Source of the DNA: Eledone cirrhosa
Lineage: Eukaryota
Length of the DNA stretch: 64,000 nt
Reading direction: 5' to 3'
Assembly: GCA_964016885.1 (NCBI GenBank)
Contig: OZ024740.1
Coordinates: 67,952,001 to 68,016,000, forward strand
Position 1 is the stretch's first letter; each line of letters opens with the position of its first letter. Of the stretch, positions 25,499-62,100 are shown in pieces. The notes beneath the pieces were generated by a model that saw nothing but the letters and a program-made list of their open reading frames with translations, searched no databases and was not told the DNA's origin. The position numbers and the translations under genes were made by a program.

Positions 25499-25533
<35 letters not shown>

Positions 25534-25695
25534 TTAGAAACACACAGATACATGCGGATACACACAAATATACATGAATGCATCCGCACCCAACTGTTTC
25601 TCGACCGTTATATCGCGTGACTATCTCCCCCTCCGCCTTTTGGGATTCTTTCTCACGTCGTGTAGACGCGTTCTTGAGACTAGTAAAATGAGGTA

Positions 25696-25783
25696 TCCTC
25701 TTGATAAGTTGGCAGACCTCGCAAGGACTCTATATCTTTGATATATTGTTTTTGTTTATGCCACGAAACTACGTAGTCGAGGA
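25696..25783 (+). ncRNA. Type I hammerhead with U3:A8 variant core
   Basis: tcctc-TTGATAA-gttggca...tgccac-GAAA-ctacgtag-TC-gagga; 5-bp stem I, GUC site, palindromic stem III. Confidence 0.75.
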
Positions 25784-26286
25784 ATTTAGGAGCAGTTTAG
25801 GTATGATACATTTTATTACTAATTATATCTAAATGTTTCTTCTATCTTCATAATGTATTTTTAACTCTGATACTGGTTCAGTCTGGTTCAAACTGAATTG
25901 GTCTGTCCCAGTCATTCATTGAGCAACATCGGTGAAGTTGGCACCCTTAACTCACAGTTGGGTGCGGATGCATTCATGTATATATGTGTGTGTCCGCATG
26001 TATCTGTGTGTTTCTAAATATATTAATAACTCCCTCTGGTCGAGCAATCTTTGAAGTGTGGCGACAACTGGAAAGCTTCCATTACTCATACTTCTCGCCT
26101 TCTTCACTACCTCTTCTACGGCCTCGATATGAATACCCCCTCCGCCTCCGTGGTATTTTCTTCGTGGTTATAAGAGGCTTAGCTCTGTTTCTCGACCGTT
26201 ATATCGCGTGACTATCTCCCCCTCCGCCTTTTGGGATTCTTTCTCACGTCGTGTAGACGCGTTCTTGAGACTAGTAAAATGAGGTA

Positions 26287-26374
26287 TCCTCTTGATAAGT
26301 TGGCAGACCTCGCAAGGACTCTATATCTTTGATATATTGTTTTTGTTTATGCCACGAAACTACGTAGTCGAGGA
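26287..26374 (+). ncRNA. Type I hammerhead with U3:A8 variant core, second copy
   Basis: Identical motif 591 bp downstream. Confidence 0.75.
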
Positions 26375-26446
26375 ATTTAGGAGCAGTTTAGGTATGATAC
26401 ATTTTATTACTAATTATATCTAAATGTTTCTTCTCTCTTCATAATG

Positions 26447-26479
<33 letters not shown>

Positions 26480-42618: not shown

Positions 42619-45600
42619 ACATCATGTCTCCAGCCCTTATAGTGAGTCTGGGCTAGTTGTTTACACTCGGATACAATGTGAGCCACAGTCTCCTCTCTCG
42701 CTCCAAAGATCCTGCACAGTAGGCTAGCCTCCTCCTTGTAAATATGGTGTTTCAACCACTTCGTTTTGAGGGCCTGCTCCTGCGAAGCCATTAACATTCC
42801 TTCTGTAACCTTTTTAAGGTCTCCTCTTTTCAACCACTTCCATGTCTGTGGATCTCTAAATTCAGTTTTCTCAAAGAAGGTACTATGAAGGGATTTTTCC
42901 TGAAGGCTGCTCTTTCTCCTTGATGTTATTTCCTCATTGGGATCTCCTGGCCTATTGTCCCCTCCTTCAGTACAGTTCTGAGCATTGGCTCCTTACTATC
43001 AGTCACGTATTTTTGTAGGTTGTTTTTCTCCATCTGAACACAGTCCTCTATGCTGATAAGACCCCTTCCACCTTCAGATCTCCTTAAGTAGAGTCTATCG
43101 ACATCACTCCTCTTGTGGAACATATTGTAGATAGTCAATAGCTTCCTAGTCTTTCTATTCATTTCTTTTTGTTCAGCAACATTTCATCTCAGAATTCCCG
43201 CACTGTACCTAATAATAGACACAACTCAGGAATTTACTGCCCTTATGGCATTCCTACTGTTCAGATGTGACTATAATACGCTCCTTACTCTCTGAATGTA
43301 TTCGGTTCTTAACAATTCCTTCATTTTTTTGTTCTTGATGTCATCAGCCTCCAGAACGCCCAAATACTTGTATCGTTCCTCAGAGTCAATTTCCTTTATC
43401 ATATCACCTGTTGGTATCTGGATTCCGTTACTTCTGCTCAACTTACCCCTCCTCATCACAATGACTCCACACTTACTAATACCAAATTGCATACATATAT
43501 CATTGCTGAAAATACGGACAGTGTCAACAAGCACATCCAACTCCTTCTCACTCCTCCCGGAGAGCTTAATATCGTCCACGAAGAGGAGGTGATTGATGGT
43601 AAGCCCTCCCTTTCCCAACCTGTATCCTGCTCTCACTTTTCGCAGTACACTGGTCAGGGGCATCAGGGCAAGGACAAACAACAGTGGGGACAGACTATCT
43701 CCCTGGAAGATACCTCTCTTGATCTTCACGCTTCCCAAGGATTCTGTAGTTGATGTTAACTCTGTTTCCCAGGACTTCATACTTTTGCCCAACAACTGCC
43801 TGATGTTATCTGCCACCTTGAAGATCTCCAGGCTTTTGGTGATCCAAGAATGAGGCACCATGTCAAATGCCTTTTTGTAGTCTATACATCCCATGGCAAG
43901 ACCAGTGTGTCTCCTCTTGCAATTCCTCATTACCATCTTATCAATAAGTAACTGGTCCTTTGTACCACGTGACTTCTTTCGGCATCCTTTCTGTTCGCCC
44001 GGTAACAAGTTGTTTGTGTGGAGGTGATGGTAGATTTCGTCAGACATAAAGCTTGTCAACAGTTTCCACATTACGGACAGACATGTGATAGGTCTATAGT
44101 TGGTAACATCATTACCCTTGATTCGGTCTTTCATTATCAGAACTGTGGTACCTTTTGTCAACCACTCTGGTACCTCACCTGACATCAAGCAGTCATTGAA
44201 CATGGTTGTCAGTTTTGGGTAGAGGGATGTTATGTTTTTAATCCAATACCCCTGCACACCATCCGGGCCAGGTGATTTCCAGTTGGTTAGTTCTTTGGCC
44301 TGCCCCTTAAGAGTTTCAACTGTGATACTCAAATCAGTTTGTTGGTGTGCCTGTTCACAGATCTCCTTGTGTACTGTCTCAATCCACACTGCCTTGTCAT
44401 TATGTTTAACTTCCTGCTCCCATATTCCTCTCCAGAATGTTTTAGTTTGTTCCGCCTCAGGGATCAAGTCGTTGTCTCCTTCTTTCCCTTCAAGCTGTCC
44501 AAACAGCATCTTCTGGTTGTTGTCGAATATGCGGTTCTGTCTATACTGGCTGACTCTGTTCTCGTATCGCCTGATTTTTGCACTCTTTGCTACAATGCGT
44601 TGCTTCAGTTCCTCTATGATCATATTTAGCTTTTTTCTCCTAGTTTTGTACTTTATTTCCAGTCTATTTTTAGTGTCTATGTTTTTTAGTGTCCCATTCA
44701 GTAGGGACTCAAGCTTTCCAATGTCATTTCTCATTTCCCTGATTTTACCACTCAGTCGTTTCTTCCACCAAGGCTCTGCTCTTTCTTGTCTGTTGTTTCC
44801 TCTCGCTTTTATACCAAGTAGTTTCCTCACCGTATTTGCTGTTGCTTTGAGGATATTGTTGCACTGGTGAAGGCTCCTCGCCTCAAGGTGTGGGATGACT
44901 TTGTTTACCTTAGCTGTTGTTTCTTTTAACTTTTTCCTGTCTACAAATCTTAGGTTCATAGGTCTCCCACTATTATTGTTCAATTAACCTACCACTAAGT
45001 TTAGGATATCTACCAAATCTTGTCCTAGCTCGTCAGCATTCATCTCTTCAGTGGCCGTATCTCTGTTCCAGGTATTATTTATCTCAGCATTCAGATGATT
45101 GTCTTTTTCGGGTGGTTCCTCCGTTCTCTCGACCTCTTCACCTTCATTTCCCACTGGCTCATTTGCCTGGCATACTCCACCCTCCATCTCCAAGCTAATC
45201 TCTCTGCTCAGTTCCTCCAGTTCCAGCTCACTTATCCACCCATTAGTTCTTATTACCCGAGCCTGCCCGGCCAGTTTTTGTTAATCTAATTTAAATGGAC
45301 CAATCTCGTTCCAGATGTTATGCATCCTTTTCCTATAGCCTTTCCTCTTGGGGTTACTCTTCAGGTAACATTGCATAACAGTTCTATTCAATTCTTTCGT
45401 CCAGTTGGTTCTGGTCCCTTTCCTTCTTCTTCTTCCTCCGACACCAGCAGTATTTGGTTGACAGCCAGGTCCCTGCTGCTGAGCCAGGGAGCAACTGTTG
45501 GGTGAGAGTCTGTCACATGACATTCTAGTCTCCATTTCACCGTTATTCGAACTGTTTAGGTTCGACATTTAAACACTCTTATCGAGGATTGGCAAATGTA

Positions 45601-47179: not shown

Positions 47180-50100
47180 AGTTGCATTTATCTTGCTTTA
47201 TGTTCATACGAGTTATCACCAAGTCACAACCAGTGACCTCAAGAGACAACAAGGTCCGCCATGTTCAAGAAAGAACATACATACTCACACATGCATCTTT
47301 AGTATTTAGACTTGTAATGTACTTATATTGACAGATTCTTCCTTAGTATATGGGCAGTTCCCATTAGTACTATCTTTTGTATTTCTCCTATACGCGGGTT
47401 TCCTGGGATTTGCGATAAGTAATCATTAGACCCCTTAGGTATCATTCCCAGAGCGCCTACAACCATTGGTATTGTTTTAGTTCTCAATTTCTACATTTTT
47501 CCAATTTCTATCTCCAGGTCCTTATACTTGCTCAAATTTTCAAATGTTTGTATAGATACATTCTTGTCTATTGGAACAGACATATCAATTAGTAGGCATA
47601 CCTTCATTTTAAAGTCCTTCAATATTATATCAGGTCTATTTGCATCTATTTTTCGGTCTGTTTGGAAGCTAAAGTTTCACAAGATTGAGATGTGATCTTT
47701 TTTTTTCAAGTATGGGAGGTGGTTGATGCTCCCACCAATTCTTTTGATGGGGCAGGTCAAAATGCTTACACATTATCCAATGTATGTATTGTGCAGCTCT
47801 GTCATGCCTGCTTAGGTATTCGGTTGGAGCTATAGGACTGCACATTGAAATTATATGGTCAATGGTCTCTGGTTGTTTTTTGCATACACGGCATAATGGG
47901 CTGCATCCATTTTTTATTATGTTGGCTTGGTAATTTTTTGTTGGCAGACACTGATCTTGTGCTGATATAATCAGTCCTTCAGTCTCCGATTTCAGTCCAG
48001 AGGATGCCAACCAGTGATGGGTTAAAATTTTGCCTACATCAGGATTGTTAGCTCGCTCTGGGTATTTTCCATACAGAGGCTTTTCTTGCCATTTCTTAGC
48101 CAGTTTCTGTAGCAGTTCTTTCTTTGCAGTTACTTTTACCTGCTTTGCTTTTTCTGTGTTTTCCATTTCAGCAGTAAATGGGACTTCTGAAATTTGTAGT
48201 CCATTACTGTATCTTTGTGCATCTTTTGTAATGGAAAATGATCTTTTGATGCTTTCGTGTTTCAAAACGAGTTTGATCATCCAATCATGTGATTCCCTTA
48301 GATATGTAGATAATCCAATTCGTGCAGTTTTCAACGCAATGTCTAACTGGATTAACCCACGTCCTCCTTCTTTCCTAGGGAGATATATTCTATCTATATC
48401 TGCATTAGGGTGATGCATTGTGTGCATGGTTAAGAATTTTCGAATGTTTGTATCGAGCCTACGGATCTCTGTGCTTGACCAGTTGATGACATTGTAACTG
48501 TAGGTTACTACTGGTATGGCAAGCGTGTTTATGGCATCGATCCTATTCCTTGCATTCAATTCCGTTCTTAAGATTTCTCTTATTCTGCGGTAACATTCCC
48601 TCCTTATCCTTTCCCTCATTGTCGAGTGCTTGATTCCGTCTCCTTCACAAACACCTAGATATTTGTAAGTTTTTTCTTGATCAAGTTCTCTTATCACGTT
48701 CCCCCGATCAAGATTAATGTCTGAACTCTTCAGCAGATTTCCTCTGGTGAATGTTGCTTTGGCGCATTTATCTAGTCCAAACTCCATTTTAATGTCATCA
48801 CTGAACTGCTCCGCAGTGGATAATAGCCCTTGCAATTGTTCATCATTTTTTGCAAATAGTTTCAGGTCATCCATGTAGAACAGGTGATTAATGGTTTTGT
48901 CATAGACTTTATATCCATGTTTTGTTTCATTGGGCATTTTACTTAATGGTATAAGTGCGATGCAGAATAAAAGCGGTGATAAAGAGTCACCCTGAAAAAT
49001 TCCACAATTAATATTAACTTCTCCAGCTTCCAGTAATTTTGTTTTACTATTCAAAAGGAGTGTCGTTTTCCATGTCTTCATACTGAATGACAAAAACCTC
49101 CTGACAACGGGGGATATTTTGAAAATCTCTAAACATTTTTCAATCCAACTGTGTGGCAAACTATCAAATGCTTTTTTATAATCTATCCAAGCAATCGATA
49201 GATTTTTGTGTCTATTATGACAATCTTCCAGTATCATTTTGTTAACCAGAAGCTGATCCTTACAGCCATATGAGCCTCGTTTACAGCCTTTCTGCTCAAT
49301 GGGAAATAGGTCATTTGTTATCAGGTGGTCATATGTGTATTCAGTTAGGTCTGATGTTAAAATGTTATACATTGTGGTCAAGCAAGTTATCACCTGTTGA
49401 TTTTATACTGTACTTTTTTTTCAATTTTCTAAGTTTAGTTTGTTTAACATGTTCACCTACTTTATAGTTTGTTAACATTTCTATGTCAGATCGGAGAAGG
49501 TTTATTTGGCGATTGATGTTCTCTTGCCAAGTAGATTTTTTGTGGGAATTCCTTTGTTTTTTCATCTTCACTCCTCATAAGTGAGTGGTAACTTTAGCCG
49601 TTGCATAATAGAGATGATTTAAATCAGTAATGTTTAGTTTGTTTGTGATGATAATGTTTTTGCTAATTATGTTAGTCTTGTGTATTATCTTTTGGTTCTG
49701 TTTGGAATTCTGGATCTTAGGGAGGGTGTCTCGTTGCCCCATGTCAGATTCTTTCATTTTCATCCATTCGATCATAATTTCATCCTTCAAGTTGGCAAGT
49801 TCATTCTCATTCATTTCTTTATCATTTACGATCTCATTATTTTCATTTGGAGTTTCATCTTGAGCATGCACTCCCTCCACTTTTTTTATCCTTTCTTTAA
49901 TTTGTTCTGTTGCCAGTGATTCCGCCCCAACACTGGGATTCGAAGTGTTACAGTTTACCTCGTTTTCACTGACACATGTTTCATTTTCCCTTCGCTGACT
50001 TTGTGCTAATAGCTTGATCTGATCAATTTCTATATCAGTTAGTAACTTTTTTCTTACAATATTTCTTCGTATATTGGCTAGTTTGTTACTGTCAATATAG

Positions 50101-51950: not shown

Positions 51951-52330
51951 GGCAGTGTATTGGCAGTATCAGTAGAGGGTCGGACGCCATGCTTTCCAGC
52001 ATAGTTACGTCCCTTTACGATCTGAGTTCAAATCCCGCGCAGGTGGAATTTGCCTTTCATCCTTACTGGGTCGATAAAATAAAGTACCAGTAATGCACTG
52101 GGTAATTGCTGGCCTTGTGCCTAAAGTAGAAACAATTATTTTATATATATATAAGGGCGGTGAATTGGCAGTATCGGTAGAGGGACGGACATGCTTTCCA
52201 GCATAGTTACGTCCCCTTATGATCTGAGTTCAAATCCTGCCGAGTGTTTCATCCTTACGGGGTCGATAAAATAAAGTACCAGTAACGTATTGGGTAATTG
52301 GTGGCATTGTGCCAAATGTAGAAACAATTA
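51951..52330 (+). mobile_element. Two tandem tRNA-derived Meta-like SINEs (51951-52140, 52156-52330)
   Basis: Two complete head-core-tail units separated by a short (TA)n. Confidence 0.85.
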
Positions 52331-52333
52331 TTT

Positions 52334-52364
<31 letters not shown>

Positions 52365-52460
52365 GTATGTATATATATAAGCAAAAGGGATATTTAATTT
52401 GTTGGTAATTCAACAAATATATATGTTTATAACTGTTTATAACATTTTCTTCTGGAGTAT

Positions 52461-52775
52461 AATATCAATGATATTAAATAAATGGAAACTATATTTATGA
52501 AACGATATTTATTCTATTATATATATTTCAAGGGTACCAAAACTTTGGTACGCTCTCATCAGATAAAATACAAAGTTTGTTTAATAAATATTGACATATC
52601 CAGGAAAAACTTGAACCGTTCAGATCTTTTTCCTGGATATGTTAATATTTATAAAACAAACTTTGTATTTCATCTGATGAGAGCGTACCAAAGTTTTGGT
52701 ACCCTTGACATTTATATAATAGAATAAATATGGTTTTATAAATATAGTTTCCATTTATATAATATCATTGATATA
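52461..52775. mobile_element. ~315-bp palindrome made of two divergent hammerhead-bearing pLTR ends
   Basis: Centre tgaaccgttca at ~52617; minus arm ttat-CTGATGA-gagcgtacca..tggtaccct-t-GAAA-tatata-TA-atag at 52515-52566; plus arm has GACA instead of GAAA. Confidence 0.85.
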
Positions 52776-55560: not shown

Positions 55561-55589
<29 letters not shown>

Positions 55590-55592
<3 letters not shown>

Positions 55593-58274
55593 TAAAAGGT
55601 ATTCCAACTTTGTCTGATTTACTCATTTTATTTACAATCCTTTAAAATTTATAATGTTATTATAATAAAATAGTATGATAGAATATTAAATGTTAAATGT
55701 TAAGTGTTAATTGAACAAGTACTTTCATGCTTTCGCAATCTTCAGGTTCGTAATGTGTGGTGACAGTCAAGTTTGCAATTTTCAACTGTAATGAGATGGG
55801 TAAATGTTGTACCTTATATACAGTGAAAATGGCTCTAGAATGCTAAATCTTGCAAACTGTATTTCGACCGCGGTGTGTAGTTTCACTGAATTACTAACGC
55901 TGATTGGTCTAGGCGTCACGGTTGGTTGAGCACTAACGACCACTATTTGATCCTATCCAAAGCATCAATTGTTTTGCTATTTTTAGAAATGATGAAAATA
56001 GCATTTTCTAGTAATCATTACTATCAACATCACTTTTATTATTATTATTATTTTTGTTGTTGTTGTTAGTGGTCGTAGTCATAGTTATTATTATTATTAT
56101 TGTTCATTTAGCTTGGGTTTGAATTTATTAATAAAATTCTTTTCTTTGATTTTTCGCTTGATTTCACTTGGGCTGGGTAATTTGTAGAATGGGAATATTA
56201 TAAATATTCGATGACCACATGTTGCTAGATGGTTACTTAGGGGTATCTGACGGACATTTGGGTCTCGTATTTGCTGTCGGTGTACCCGTGCACGTTCCGA
56301 TAGTGCATTTCCAGTTTGACCTACATATAGTTCTTCACAATTCGGGCATTTAATGCAGTAAGTTAGATTTCTGCTTTTGCAGTTCTTATTTGCATTTGGG
56401 AATTTGTTTCCAGTTTTTGTTTTCATATATTGACCGGCGTGTATAGATTGACATGTGCCGCATCGACTATCATTGCATTTAGATACAGTGAATGATTGGT
56501 CTTTTTTGTTAAGGTCAAAGTTTGCTTTTGTTAGTAATTGCTTCAAATTTTTCGGCTGTCATTTACTAAGCGTCAAAGATCGATCTGTGATTAAGCCTTT
56601 TAATTCATTACTTTGAGCAATGATCGGTAGGTTTGCTTTGGCAGTGTTGAAGATATTCTGGTGACATGGGTTGTGTGTCATTATAAATGGTATGACCAGT
56701 TCTTGGTTTCTTCTTCGTTGGGTTGTCCCAAGTTGTTGTATAGGTATTTTTATAGCCTGCTGTATGCCATTTTCTATAAGTAGAGATGGGTATTTTTGTT
56801 TGAGCAAAAATTCTCTTAGTTCTTTTAGGCGTTTGTACCTGGTATTTGTATCTTCTACAATGGTACAAATTCTTCTGGCCAGGCAGTATGGGATGTTGCG
56901 TTTTGTATGAGGTGGATGGCACGACTTAAAATTCAGATATTGATGGGTGTATGTGTGTTTATAATATATATCCGTGGTAATAGTGGTGTAGTTTTTGATT
57001 ATCATTATATCTAGGAATGGTAATTTGGTCCTACACATCTCTTTTGTGAATTGGAGTGATGGGTGTAGGTTATTTAGGAGGATATTGAACTCATCCAGAG
57101 TATCTAGAGATTCTGTCCAGATTATGAAACAGTCGTCAAGGTATCTCTACCAACATTTTTCAATGTACTTTCTAAAGTCAGTACTATATGTTTCCTCTAT
57201 TTCTTGGTAGAGTTTGTTCTAAGTATCCCATTACAGAGTTCACGTAAACGGGAGCAAACTTCGTTCCCATCGCTGTGCCTCTAATTTGGATGTAATTCTT
57301 TCTATTGTAAAGAAAGTGTTGTTTTCCAGAATAACTTTAACTGCGTCTAATATAAATGGCGCTGTGAATCTGATGAGAATCACTTCTCTATGTTTTTCCA
57401 CCCAGTATTTAACCGCCTTTATTCCCAAATCATGTGTAATGTTGGTGTAAAGGCTTACCACATCAAAACTAAGTAGAAGTAAATTCGTTTCCGTGGCTTT
57501 GGGAAGATGGGAGAGGAAGTCGATATCATTCCGAATGAAACTGGGAATGTGAATACATAGTGGTTTCAAAATAATGTCAACAAAATTGCTTAGACGGTGG
57601 GTGGGGCATGCTGGACCAGCTATAATAGGTCTATGTTTTAAGTCTTTTGGGTGTAGTAATTTAATGTACTCACTGTTTTGTTCTCTTACTGCCAGTTGTA
57701 TTTCTTTTGACTTATGAACTTTCGGTAGGCCATACAGGTTGCTGAGCTTTGGCTCAAATTGGTGATGTAGTCTCTTTCCATATCAGCAAGTGAGTTGTGG
57801 TATTTTGAAGCCAGGTTGTTGATCTTCTTCATGATGTTGTGGTCTATATTTGACGGTATTTCATGATAGAATGTTGTCTTTCTGTTGTTCCTCAACCAAA
57901 TCCTTGTAGTATTCAGCATCCATTATAACAACTGCACCCCCATTATCTGCTTGTTTAATTATTATTGTTTTATCATTTTGTATACGTTTAATTGAAGACA
58001 TTTCTGATTTGTTAATGTTTGGCCTAACATTAGTATTACGTCTAAGAGGAAATGTATACAGGATGTCAATGTATTGGTCGAGATAGATATTTCTTCCTTT
58101 TGGCGGAGTGAAATTTGATTTATTCTTTACTAGTGATTCATCACTCTCATTATTTTTATCAGCGAAGAATTCTACAAGACGTAATTTTCGACAGAATTCT
58201 TGGGTATCCTTCTTCAGTTCTTGGTGGTTGACTGTTGGTGTCGGTGTGAATTTCAGTCCTTTTGACAGAATTTG

Positions 58275-58280
<6 letters not shown>
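55590..58280 (-). mobile_element. Penelope-like element (Neptune-type), RT plus GIY-YIG, frameshifted and 5'-truncated, with 3' pLTR
   Basis: LSKGLKFTPTP, IIIKQADNGGAVVIMD, SFDVVSLYTNI, RYLDD, LPFLDI, YYKHTYTHQYL, Cys linker CNDSRCGTC, NLTYCIKCPNCEELYVGQTG (ORFs 56097-58385). Confidence 0.93.
55713..55749 (-). ncRNA. Type I minimal hammerhead in PLE 3' pLTR
   Basis: gaac-CTGAAGA-t-tgc(gaaa)gca-t-GAAA-gtac-TT-gttc. Confidence 0.85.
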
Positions 58281-58320
<40 letters not shown>

Positions 58321-59194: not shown

Positions 59195-62100
59195 CGGTGG
59201 AATGGTAAGGGGGCGAGGATGGGTAGGTGTGGAAGTTGGAGTGAGGAGGGTGTGTGTGTGTGTGTATTAGTAGGGGTGTTAGAGGGATGAGTGAGTGTGG
59301 AGCGAGGGTGTGGGTGGAGCGGGGAGAGAAGGGTGTGTGTGGTTCTATGGAGGGAGTGTGGTGTACTGATGTGTGTGTAGTTTGATGAAGAGGTGTTAGT
59401 GTGTGTTAGTATACGGGAGGTGGGGAGGGGTTGAATGCAGGTGTGAGTGGGGGTTACTGGTGGTAGGGTGTGTAGAGTTGGTGGTGTACGAGGGTGTGTG
59501 GGTACGTGTGCGTGGGGTTGGGGGGTGTTAGTGATGTTAGTTGCGTGTGGGGTGGGTGGTGTAAGTGGGTGCGTGTGTTCGTGTGCTTGGGGTTACGGGG
59601 TGATAGTAAGGTTAGTTGCGGTGTGGTGGGATGGAGGTGCGGGGGTGAGAGGTGTGGGGGTGAGGGTTAGTGGTGGTAGTAGGGTGTGTGTTTAGTGTGA
59701 GCGTGTGTATATATGTGCCGGTGGGTGTGTGCGTGTGATAAGGCGGGGGGAGGAGGAGAAGAGGGGAGGGAAGGGATGTTAGTATGTAAGTTGGGGAAGG
59801 GTGGTCAGATGAGGGGTGGAGTGGAGGTGTTAGTATTGTTAGTGTGGGGTGGGCGGTGAAAAGGAGGGGTGTGTTAGTGGTGTTAGTGGGGGATAAGTGT
59901 GGGGGGAGGGGGGCGGTCGAACGCTAAAGGAATAAGGGTGGGGAATTCAGGCCGGGGGGAGTGTGGGTCTGTAAGATGAAGATAGTTCGTTGTTCGACCG
60001 TAAGGCGATGGGCGGGTGTTCCGTGGCACTGGAGTAGGCCACAGACTGTGAGATGGCGTGCGGAGTGTCCAGGGCCACCAAAGTGGCGGGCGATGGGGGA
60101 ACTGCCCCCGAGACGAATATCCCGGAGGTGCTCCGTGACTCGGTCCGCCAGGCGACGTCCAGTCTGTCCGTAGACTAGGTTGGAGGAGGTGGAGCGGAAG
60201 GCATGCCGGACCGAGAGAGAGTGGCCGTTGGGACTCTGGAAGGTGGTAGTGTTGGTGATGTGGGGACAGGTGTTGCAGCGGGGCCTAGAACAGGGTGAGG
60301 GACCGGTGGGGGGAACATAGCGTGGGTTGGGGGGTTGGGAGCTATGGACGAGGAGGGTGTGGAGATTGCGTGCGCGTTTGAAGGAGGGGAGTGGTGGGGT
60401 TGGGAAGATGTGGGAGGTGGAGGAGTAGGACTGGAGGCGTCAGAAGAGGCGGCGGAGGGTGCGGTGGAGGGGTAAGGTGTAGTGGTGGTAGGTGATGGGG
60501 AAGGGGAGACGGTGGGTGGGTGTGCGTTGGCGTGGGGTGAGGGTGGTGGAACGGGGGATAGCACGGGCGCGGGTGAGAGCGATGTAGACGAGAGAGGGTG
60601 GTAACCTCTGCGGATGAAATGGCTGACTAGGGAAAGGGCCTGGGACTCGAACTCAGCATCACGGCTACAGAGGCGGCGGATCCTGAGAAGTTGGGAATAG
60701 GGAATGGAGTGTTTAGTGTGGGTGGGGTGAGAAGAGGTGAAGTCGAGGTAAGAGTGGGAGTCGGTGGGTTTGAAGAAGGCGGAGGTGACGAGGGAGTGGT
60801 GGGAGGGGTCGAAGGCGACGGAGATGTCTAAGAAGTGGACGTGGGTGGTGGAGATAGAGATGGTGAAGTGGAGGGAGGGGTGGAAGGAGCAGAAGAAGGA
60901 GAGAAAGGAGTCGAGCTGTTCTCGGGTGAGGGTCGTGGCTCCGATATAGTCGTCAATGTAACGACCGTACAGTTCGGGCGTGGGGCCGGTGTACTGGGCA
61001 AAGATTTGGGCCTCAACATGGCCAACAAAAAGGTTGGCATAGTTCGGGCCCATTCTTGTGCCCATGGCTACCCCCGTCACCTGTTGGTAAAACTCACCCG
61101 AGAAGGAGAAATAATTTAGGGTGAAGACCAGCTCGGCGAGGCGAAGGAGGGTGGGTGTAGAGGGAATGGGGGAGGGGCGAAGTCGAGGTAGTGTTTGAGG
61201 GCGCGAAGGCCGTCGGCGTGGAGGATACTGTATAGAGGGACTTGATGTCTAGGGTGAAGAGGAAGGGCTGTGGGCCGATAGGTAGGTGAAGGAGTCGAAA
61301 AGGCGCAGGGCGTGGTTGGTGTCCGAGATGTGGGAGGGGAGGGTGGTGACAAGGGGGGCGAGGAGGGAGTCGAGAAAGACGGAGATGAGTTCGGTGGGGC
61401 AGTTGCAAGCGGAGACGATGGGGAGGCTGGTGTTGTCGGGTTTGTGGAGTTTGGGGAGGAAGTAGATGGTGGGGGTGCGGGGGGGTGCGGACGATGAGGT
61501 GGGAAGCGGTGGGGGGAGGAGGGAGGAGGCGATAAGGTCTTTGATGGTGGAGGAGACTTGCTGTTGGTAGAGGGGGGTGGGATCGGAGGGTAGAGGGCGG
61601 TAAAAGAGGGTGTTACAGAGCTGCCTGAGGGCTTCGGCCGTGTAGAGGTCCGCGCGCCATACCACTACGGCGCCTCCCTTGTCCGCCGGTTTGATGACGA
61701 TGTCATCTCGGCTACGGAGGGAGCGGAGAGTGAGGAGTTCGCCTCGTGAGATATTTTGCTGTTTGGAACGGTGGCGGAAGTCGAAACGATTTACTGCGCT
61801 ACGGCTGGCATCGACGAAGGCGTCCAGGGTGCTAAATTGCTCTGGGGCCGGCGTCCAAGAAGATGGTCGTCGGCCCAGGGCGAGAAACGGGTCTGGGGCG
61901 TCCGGAGCCGGTGGCGTTCGGCCGAAATGTGCCTGTAGGTTAGTGCGTCGCACGAATCGCTCGACTTCCGTTCGGGTGCGGAACTCGTCGCTGTGCGGAG
62001 TGTGGGGTATAAAGCGAAGGCTTCTACTAAGGAGTGAGCGCTTAGGTGCGGAGAGGGGGAGCTCAGGGGGTATGGTGACAACAAGGGGTGGGTTTGGGTG

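Follow-up and report, generated by a model that had tools for sequence, protein, structure and literature searches.

Insertions of EN+ Penelope-like elements (PLEs), which form the sister group of telomerase, consist, as described in PMC3846280 and PMC8557442, of a partial tandem accompanied by an inverted, 5'-truncated copy, with a tail of 30-40 bp at one end, and how the inverted arms and the one-end tail are made is treated as an open question in the texts of PMC8557442 and PMC11167929. In the in vitro work on an Anolis PLE (Frangieh 2024, PMC11167929), the tail is bounded by two reverse transcriptase (RT) start sites, both strands are nicked and extended, the protein is predicted to be a dimer, and the hammerhead ribozyme is reported to be protein-assisted and dispensable for insertion. 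Among the PLEs, the Hydra clade is described as having (TA)n targets (Craig 2021, PMC8557442). A hammerhead with a U3-A8 pair, represented by about 1,300 matches, has been reported from the Cercyon PLEs of Schistosoma (Cervera and de la Pena 2014, PMC4209133), and the cleavage of hammerheads as dimers is covered in PMC6765202. Non-LTR retrozymes and their origin from PLEs are the subject of two reports (Cervera and de la Pena 2020, PMC7229834; Li, Clavereau and Pollet 2026, bioRxiv 10.64898/2026.07.22.740005), both of which propose that retrozymes are non-autonomous PLE derivatives moving via circles; the published GC content is under 45% (PMC7229834), the published units span 51-972 bp, and eight of nine Xenopus retrozyme dimers are reported not to have cleaved (both from the bioRxiv report).

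Here we describe a repeat family with a 591-nt unit, one copy of which lies in the 64-kb window, that is, the whole stretch of DNA that was analysed. The family is a non-LTR retrozyme or, in other words, a non-autonomous PLE. Like the animal non-LTR retrozymes of the two reports, it is built of tandem units that are non-coding, contain a single type I hammerhead and have a GC content under 45%, the circle and expression being predicted. Unlike them, it has a unit about twice the usual 300 bp and a minimal, dimer-type U3:A8 hammerhead instead of the canonical one, and more than half of its insertions are head-to-head with two fixed ends, an arrangement that goes unmentioned in the available text of either report. 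What is new is a long-tailed U3:A8 retrozyme or non-autonomous PLE, the interest of which lies in the rule followed by its ends and in two hairpins, the core variant being known.

The locus and its family

The element consists of 1.45 units of the 591-nt repeat and a 70-nt inverted arm, embedded in a (TA)n run. The segment 25594-25858 recurs at 26185-26449 (265 nt, 1 mismatch, period 591), and 25954-26023 reappears in reverse complement at 25528-25597 (70 nt, 2 mismatches). By these two matches, the order inv(A)-B-C-A-D-B given in the preliminary description is present; what was called there a permuted repeat is a plain partial tandem, and what was called an inverted 5' cap is a second arm, the 3' end of which is turned toward the left flank. 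The features are as follows, S1 and S2 being the two 3' end sites discussed below.

25510-25527, no strand: left (TA)n target run, from the sequence
25528-25597, minus: second (inverted) arm, 70 nt, 3' end 25528 at S2, reverse complement of 25954-26023
25594-25597, no strand: 4 letters common to both arms at the 5'-5' junction (arm overlap)
25594-26449, plus: main arm, 856 nt or 1.45 units, 3' end 26449 at S1
25696-25783, plus: hammerhead 1, type I, predicted cut after 25778
25696-25700 with 25779-25783: stem I of hammerhead 1
25701 and 25706: U3 and A8 of hammerhead 1
25708-25764: helix II of hammerhead 1, with the bulge (T or C) at 25710
25765-25768: GAAA of hammerhead 1
25768-25777: palindromic stem III of hammerhead 1
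25779-26369, plus: monomer of 591 nt from cut to cut (predicted circle), GC content 41.5%, stop-free stretches of up to 86 codons
25859-26023, plus: 165-nt "tail" between S1 (25858) and S2 (26023), from the end map of 137 arms
25864-25924, plus: hairpin 1, RCTC-TG...CA-TW-GAGC, 5 nt past S1, common to Hydra-type PLEs
26029-26045, plus: hairpin 2, RCTC-CC-NNN-GG-TH-GAGY, 5 nt past S2, common to Hydra-type PLEs
26287-26374, plus: hammerhead 2, with no difference from hammerhead 1 and its partner in the double-hammerhead fold, cut predicted after 26369
26450-26473, no strand: right (TA)n target run, from the sequence

The family comprises thousands of dispersed, young, non-coding insertions, roughly 4,000 in number, with about 8,000 hammerhead copies. 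In the 3.0-Gb source genome, the 21-nt 5' core of the hammerhead has 765 matches with T at the bulge 25710 and 6,073 with a different base there (C in 100 of the 100 matches listed), and the 15-nt 3' core has 8,071 matches genome-wide; since reversed controls of the cores had no matches, compared with these thousands, the motif is not a chance occurrence. The T variant of the window is young (median identity of 99.2% among 56 full units), older subfamilies reach down to about 76% identity, and the layout of the unit is kept in subfamilies that are 76-85% alike. The monomer is 591 nt long in 48 of 76 distinct cut-to-cut monomers (range 581-607), which bears out the earlier view of a dispersed retrozyme-like or mini-PLE family with a unit of this size. 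Tandems reach 4.9 units per arm, and more than one unit is present in 74 of 137 arms. The unit, with no stop-free stretch longer than 86 codons, contains no ORF for an RT or a GIY-YIG domain; when folded as a circle, the monomer has a stability z of -5.2 against 40 shuffles.

Several minor observations pertain to the unit. At two loci, L257 and L258, a higher-order tandem duplication of about 2,987 bp is built of 591-nt units. Two runs labelled as other organisms (X3 and X5) contain the unit in its full length, 99% identical and of low depth, in contigs of 621 and 620 nt, without family Y (see below); these contigs equal the unit plus 30 nt and are accounted for by a tandem as well as by a circle. 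A search of the source genome did not recover a relative that one run had shown as a loose end. A word at 25882-25890, which we take to resemble a B-box, was discarded as a candidate signal: it is not kept in the old subfamilies. No tRNA is present within the 64-kb window.

A hammerhead with a U3:A8 core

Both B copies carry TCCTC-TTGATAA-stem II-GAAA-CTACGTAG-TC-GAGGA, with predicted cuts after 25778 and 26369, in agreement with the core N3 U G A N N8 A...GAAA...UH with its 3:8 pair. The two U3:A8 variant hammerheads recognized initially are accordingly confirmed by a scan of both window strands, in which the single other motif is an unrelated C3:G8 one at 52562. The suspected blind spot of searches for this form is real, in that Rfam yields no hammerhead among 87 matches at E<=10.

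The motif shares with the minimal PLE hammerheads described in PMC4209133 its type I topology, a 5-bp helix I, a long helix II, the G10.1-C11.1 pair, a loopless palindromic helix III and U3-A8. It differs from those described there in that the helix III palindrome has 10 nt and the helix II region 57 nt, and in that the extra base, the variable unpaired one at 25710, follows 10.2 instead of lying between 9 and 10.1. The 44-nt stretch between the stem II strands, initially taken for a long loop II, folds as a three-part helix and is an extended helix II, with mostly one-sided changes among the copies. Stem III is a 10-nt palindrome without a loop and so would form only between two copies. When the double-hammerhead fold is forced on 25681-26383, it lies 4.8 kcal/mol above the minimum, compared with 17.4 for two single hammerheads; a lone hammerhead region folds no better than shuffles (z -0.25).

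The U3:A8 pair is kept in 24 of 25 complete old cores that were chosen solely on their 3' half. Genome-wide, there are 14 copies without U3 (8 with C, 4 with G and 2 with A); because all of them have A8, each lies at its own locus and, at the 10 of these 14 loci where another full core is present, that core has U3, the 14 copies represent decay. The C3:G8 form is absent among them, the C3:G8 pattern having matched 3 unrelated places, and one U3:G8 copy was seen among 200 listed. The copy search for independent, non-compensatory changes at positions 3 and 8 thus revealed decay and not a refutation of the ribozyme. Across related PLE families, the 3:8 pair covaries, with U3:A8 in family Y and C3:G8 in F79, F73 and F71. 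The old cores, the small number of copies without U3 and the sister PLEs together sustain the interpretation of U3:A8 as a compensatory form.

The pattern of variation suggests that the hammerhead is under selection. Among 90 insertions, variants common to at least 3 of them occupy none of the 25 positions of the unselected 3' half, compared with 95 of 547 positions elsewhere (p=0.0096). In 34 hand-picked diverse sequences, a stem I pair covaries (U-A in 15, U-G in 8 and C-G in 9); none of 500 shuffles reaches the observed 11 double-change cells, a test that is inflated by the relatedness of the sequences. In the 34-copy alignment, 97% of the cells are paired, and the invariance of stem III and of U3:A8 is partly a product of the selection of copies. 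Across the 9 sources searched with a covariance model of the hammerhead, all matches are from the 591-nt family. A few insertions in which all units have changes that damage the core or a stem (A9U in the 2 units of L351, the 3 units of L260, both arms of L261) count against a strict need for cleavage.

The U3:A8 core itself is not the novelty because it has been published (PMC4209133) and is common in the source genome, where another 1,914 short-stem U3:A8 matches are found (control 49). The weight originally given to the U3:A8 core, described in 2014 and with those 1,914 further matches, and to the size of 591 nt, within the published range of 51-972 bp, was too great. The core matters mainly for annotation, as searches for CUGANGA and Rfam miss about 10,000 motifs in the source genome.

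Two 3' end sites and the pairing of arms

In the end map, 65 of 137 classifiable arms end at unit position 265-266 (S1) and 64 at 430-432 (S2), the two sites being 165 nt apart, and a TA run follows the 3' end in 132 of the 137. The first sample consisted of 91 insertions, 51 of them head-to-head and 40 single. The head-to-head insertions included 47 that combine S1 with S2, one S1+S1 (L049) and 3 with an arm ending elsewhere; L058 and L061 are duplicates, and with L061 dropped, 46 of 47 classifiable insertions are S1+S2. Three further insertions, none of them whole in a single locus, were excluded from this sample, and all three are S1+S2. A second sample of 71 loci, rich in old subfamilies, from which loci that overlap, a single complex locus and a higher-order duplication were excluded, contained 38 head-to-head insertions, namely, 28 S1+S2, 2 S2+S2 and 8 in which an arm stops at another position or at the edge of the locus. 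Both samples come mainly from contigs C1-C2 and consist of hammerhead-bearing copies; within this scope, S1+S2 was found in 74 of 77 classifiable head-to-head insertions, whereas independent choice of the sites predicts half. The classifiable exceptions are L049, a composite of an old S1/S2 pair and a new arm, and L127 and L221, both S2+S2; 11 more insertions have an arm that ends elsewhere. The single arms (n=40) end at S2 in 21 cases, at S1 in 18 and elsewhere in one. Among 39 single-arm insertions, tiny second arms were uninformative: 2 were clear stubs of the opposite site, and another 2, of the same site, were ambiguous. The two fixed 3' ends and their use, one per arm, are new and were absent from the preliminary description.

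The 5' ends are scattered and coincide with the cut site in 2 of 137 arms, with 2.5 expected. The insertions thus combine a fixed 3' end, variable 5' truncation, an inverted copy, a one-end tail and a microsatellite target, and they share with the EN+ PLE insertions characterized in PMC3846280 and PMC8557442 the partial tandem, the inverted arm, the one-end tail, the AT-rich target and the two start sites; unlike the 30-40 bp reported for those elements, the tail of the unit is 165 nt, and that of the Hydra-type PLEs found here is 92-166 nt. That the unit would be an ordinary satellite or a segmental repeat, spread by DNA-level recombination and containing a hammerhead by chance or as a dead look-alike, is hardly credible in the face of the end map, which refutes it: the 3' ends are fixed and the 5' ends random, the targets are (TA)n and the copies are dispersed genome-wide, all of which is at odds with such an origin, as are stem covariation and the motifs in common with PLEs, even if the hammerhead region scores z -0.25 against shuffles and has no Rfam match and one 2,987-bp higher-order duplication contains such units.

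The arms of one insertion apparently derive from a common template. They agree at 781 of 790 polymorphic calls, the agreement between insertions being 73%; rare variants occur in both arms in 26 cases and in one arm only in 68, and 31 of 164 private variants are present in all units. In L088, private variants are found in 7-8 of 7-8 units across both arms, and in L008, both arms show a two-allele pattern that is not given by a monomeric circle. The arms are of comparable standing: the longer arm ends at S1 in 25 of 47 insertions, which does not fit a division into a main copy and a cap, and both arms exceed one unit in 13 of 47. At the 5'-5' junctions, 32 of 45 share 1-7 letters, 7 are blunt and 6 contain extra letters.

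For the inverted repeats of PLEs, a fold-back or antisense origin is proposed in PMC3846280 and PMC8557442, in which case a single priming event would suffice, the second arm would arise through self-priming of the folded cDNA or from an antisense template, and the endonuclease would trim the tail from one end. Some of the data have the appearance expected of this process, one arm lying inside the other in 31 of 46 insertions, including that in the window, and a few junctions (L085 and L092) being palindromic at one position. However, neither arm lies inside the other in 15 of the 46, and the arms of L141 (171-265 and 336-430) have no sequence in common, which excludes copying of one arm from the other in these cases; moreover, the contained arm is S1 in 20 cases and S2 in 11, so that there is no fixed first site, and each end has its own conserved hairpin. 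We consider a fold-back origin distinctly improbable.

A stronger competitor, one that we nevertheless regard as unlikely, retains priming at two sites and places it on an uncleaved linear multimer, or on two RNAs of one source locus, so that the hammerhead is a passenger or acts at a different step and the circle is needless. It is in line with the dispensability of the Anolis hammerhead in vitro, with the existence of core-damaged arrays, with the differences from unit to unit in L008 and L106 and with the lack of 5' ends at the cut site. Against it speak the apparent selection on the core and the stems and the long arrays, which reach 4.9 units per arm and in which private variants can occupy 7-8 of 7-8 units (L088), as these would require a step that rebuilds identical tandems. 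Judging from DNA, a circle and a linear multimer appear indistinguishable, as a homogeneous source array would explain the shared haplotypes equally well.

Paired hairpins, candidate drivers and other elements

The search with the U3:A8 motif led to family Y, an autonomous PLE with ORFs of 877 aa that combine RT and GIY-YIG domains, which has sisters at 79, 73 and 70% RT identity (F79, F73 and F70). All four carry RWR, DKT, CxCX5C, CxxC and CxH, the marks of the Hydra clade according to Craig 2021. At E<=1e-30, family Y has 293 RT relatives, and in the search for Hydra-type RTs, 142 places were examined among 39,081 first-look candidates. The Hydra-type PLEs at L292, L338, L343 and L351 have ORFs of 832-877 aa with N-rich inserts, and their tandem spacing, in the three with the spacing in view, is 5.1-5.6 kb, compared with the elements of under 3 kb first described. 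In F70, the youngest of the Hydra-type families (L351:740 and 4939), the hammerhead core is CCGAAGA, the conserved U4 being replaced by C.

Each of the Hydra-type PLEs has two end sites, with a bulged hairpin, RCTC-NN...NN-TN-GAGY, 3-5 nt past each of them; both hairpins recur in the 591-nt unit, at the same distances from its ends. In 1.74 Mb of loci, the hairpin pair is confined to the 591-nt unit and the ends of Hydra-type PLEs. When the monomer was shuffled 5,000 times, one hairpin motif appeared 9 times and the other once; this test is optimistic given that the motifs were defined after the sequences had been viewed. The young copies show an A-C mismatch at the base of each hairpin, and hairpin 2, with -0.9 kcal/mol, is weak. 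S1 and S2 lie 165 nt apart in the unit, and the corresponding distance is 166 nt for F70, 106 for Y, 99 for F79 and 92 for F73; the tail measures 155-168 nt in 10 of the 12 monomer types that have both hairpins. With copies that are as young as those of the unit (98.8-99.8% alike) and near-equal spacing, F70 is the best candidate for the driver. A profile of the monomer has no significant match on the end region of family Y, and the alignment scores of the unit against Hydra-type ends are no better than those of AT-rich controls. The unit thus resembles the Hydra-clade PLEs, as described in PMC8557442, in its (TA)n targets and, by comparison with the elements found here, in both hairpins, and differs from them in having neither an ORF nor significant overall sequence similarity. 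As an invertebrate-type retrozyme, it seems to be tied to this clade by cis signals and not by overall similarity.

The use of one site per arm extends to autonomous elements. Family Y follows the rule in 7 of 7 cases (5/5 and 2/2, one mis-call, L373, being excluded), and so does PLE-A, an unrelated family, in 10 of 11 cases by script and 11 of 11 by eye; from these two families, the rule looks general to PLEs.

Two families were considered as parents and rejected: PLE-A, with its 775-aa ORF and a copy in the window, has no similarity to the unit, a C3:G8 core and no hairpin motif, and for family X, with U3:A8 and a short stem II, the alignment score stemmed from the AT-rich flank. The possibility that the unit is the truncated end (pLTR) of an undiscovered autonomous PLE, rather than an independent non-autonomous family, draws on the abundance of short hammerhead-bearing PLE end fragments and on the sampling of 142 of the 39,081 Hydra-type RT candidates. 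The structure of the unit makes it very improbable indeed: past S2, 346 nt without an ORF lead to the next hammerhead and the units are directly consecutive, none of 162 mapped insertions has an arm extending 5' into a shared coding region, the RT fragment in L238 adjoins the 3' side of the arm, and the layout is unchanged in subfamilies that are 76-85% alike.

We favor an independent non-coding 591-nt repeat for which a Hydra-type PLE probably supplies the RT-GIY-YIG protein in trans, both cut (TA)n strands being primed, one at S1 and one at S2 of the same RNA. The following sequence of events, for which we infer cleavage, the circle, the dimeric protein and the driver family, can be envisaged. 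A tandem copy would be transcribed, and two hammerheads would pair via the 10-bp palindromic stem III and release the 591-nt monomer, which could then be ligated to a circle. Two PLE subunits would bind the two bulged hairpins. As the DNA shows, the insertions sit in (TA)n and the 3' ends of the arms are at S1 or S2; the two arms of a head-to-head insertion divide these sites between them, with no fixed order of length, are of the same haplotype and may both exceed one unit. Both cDNAs would be extended around the circle, or else along a multimer, to random stopping points and be joined 5' to 5' through 1-7 common letters, and a very short second cDNA would produce a single-arm insertion. In the twin priming of L1, two target strands similarly prime on one RNA and the cDNAs are joined by microhomology, resulting in an inversion; there, the second site is found by chance base pairing, and the process is a side path. 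Unlike in L1, both sites are fixed here, and twin priming would be the main path.

Somewhat more tentatively, we propose that head-to-head PLE insertions and the one-sided tail could be the normal product of programmed twin priming, in which a dimer sits on two conserved bulged hairpins of one RNA (here, the putative ribozyme-cut 591-nt circle) and each subunit takes its own site and one target strand; the hairpins might then be the first defined RT-recruitment signal of Hydra-clade PLEs, perhaps enough to make any RNA a passenger. In the literature searched, mostly open-access main texts, we found no statement of an obligate one-site-per-arm rule, of the exclusion of fold-back or of paired hairpins. 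For the question of the inverted arms of PLEs, the family provides extensive natural data together with a protein-free substrate of 591 nt, and with start sites, RNA signals and intact candidate enzymes (ORFs of 832-877 aa) at hand, the question becomes directly testable.

Other elements of the window and the genome deserve a brief description. The window contains, at 55585-58282 on the minus strand, a decayed copy (93%) of the very active, 4,211-bp family PLE-A, which has a 775-aa RT-GIY-YIG ORF, an upstream frame of 476 codons, a C3:G8 hammerhead, a 61-nt tail and (TA)n targets; the script places its tail on a single arm in 10 of 11 inverted insertions. A second PLE-like ORF, GC-rich and without a Pfam match, survives as remnants at 59886-61248 and at about 58440, also on the minus strand, and a C3:G8 hammerhead-like motif lies downstream of this ORF. 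A short head-to-head insertion at about 52330-52700 carries the minimal C3:G8 hammerhead at 52562 (minus strand) and probably belongs to the other family implied in the preliminary description. Elsewhere in the genome, family X (L262-L291, L304 and L305) is an abundant U3:A8 hammerhead family with a 4-bp stem II and head-to-head and tandem copies, the two ends of which are about 35-40 nt apart, with no ORF linked to it so far. Finally, two LINE-type RT frames (Pfam RVT_1) are located in the window at 43274-44983 and 47672-49402 on the minus strand.
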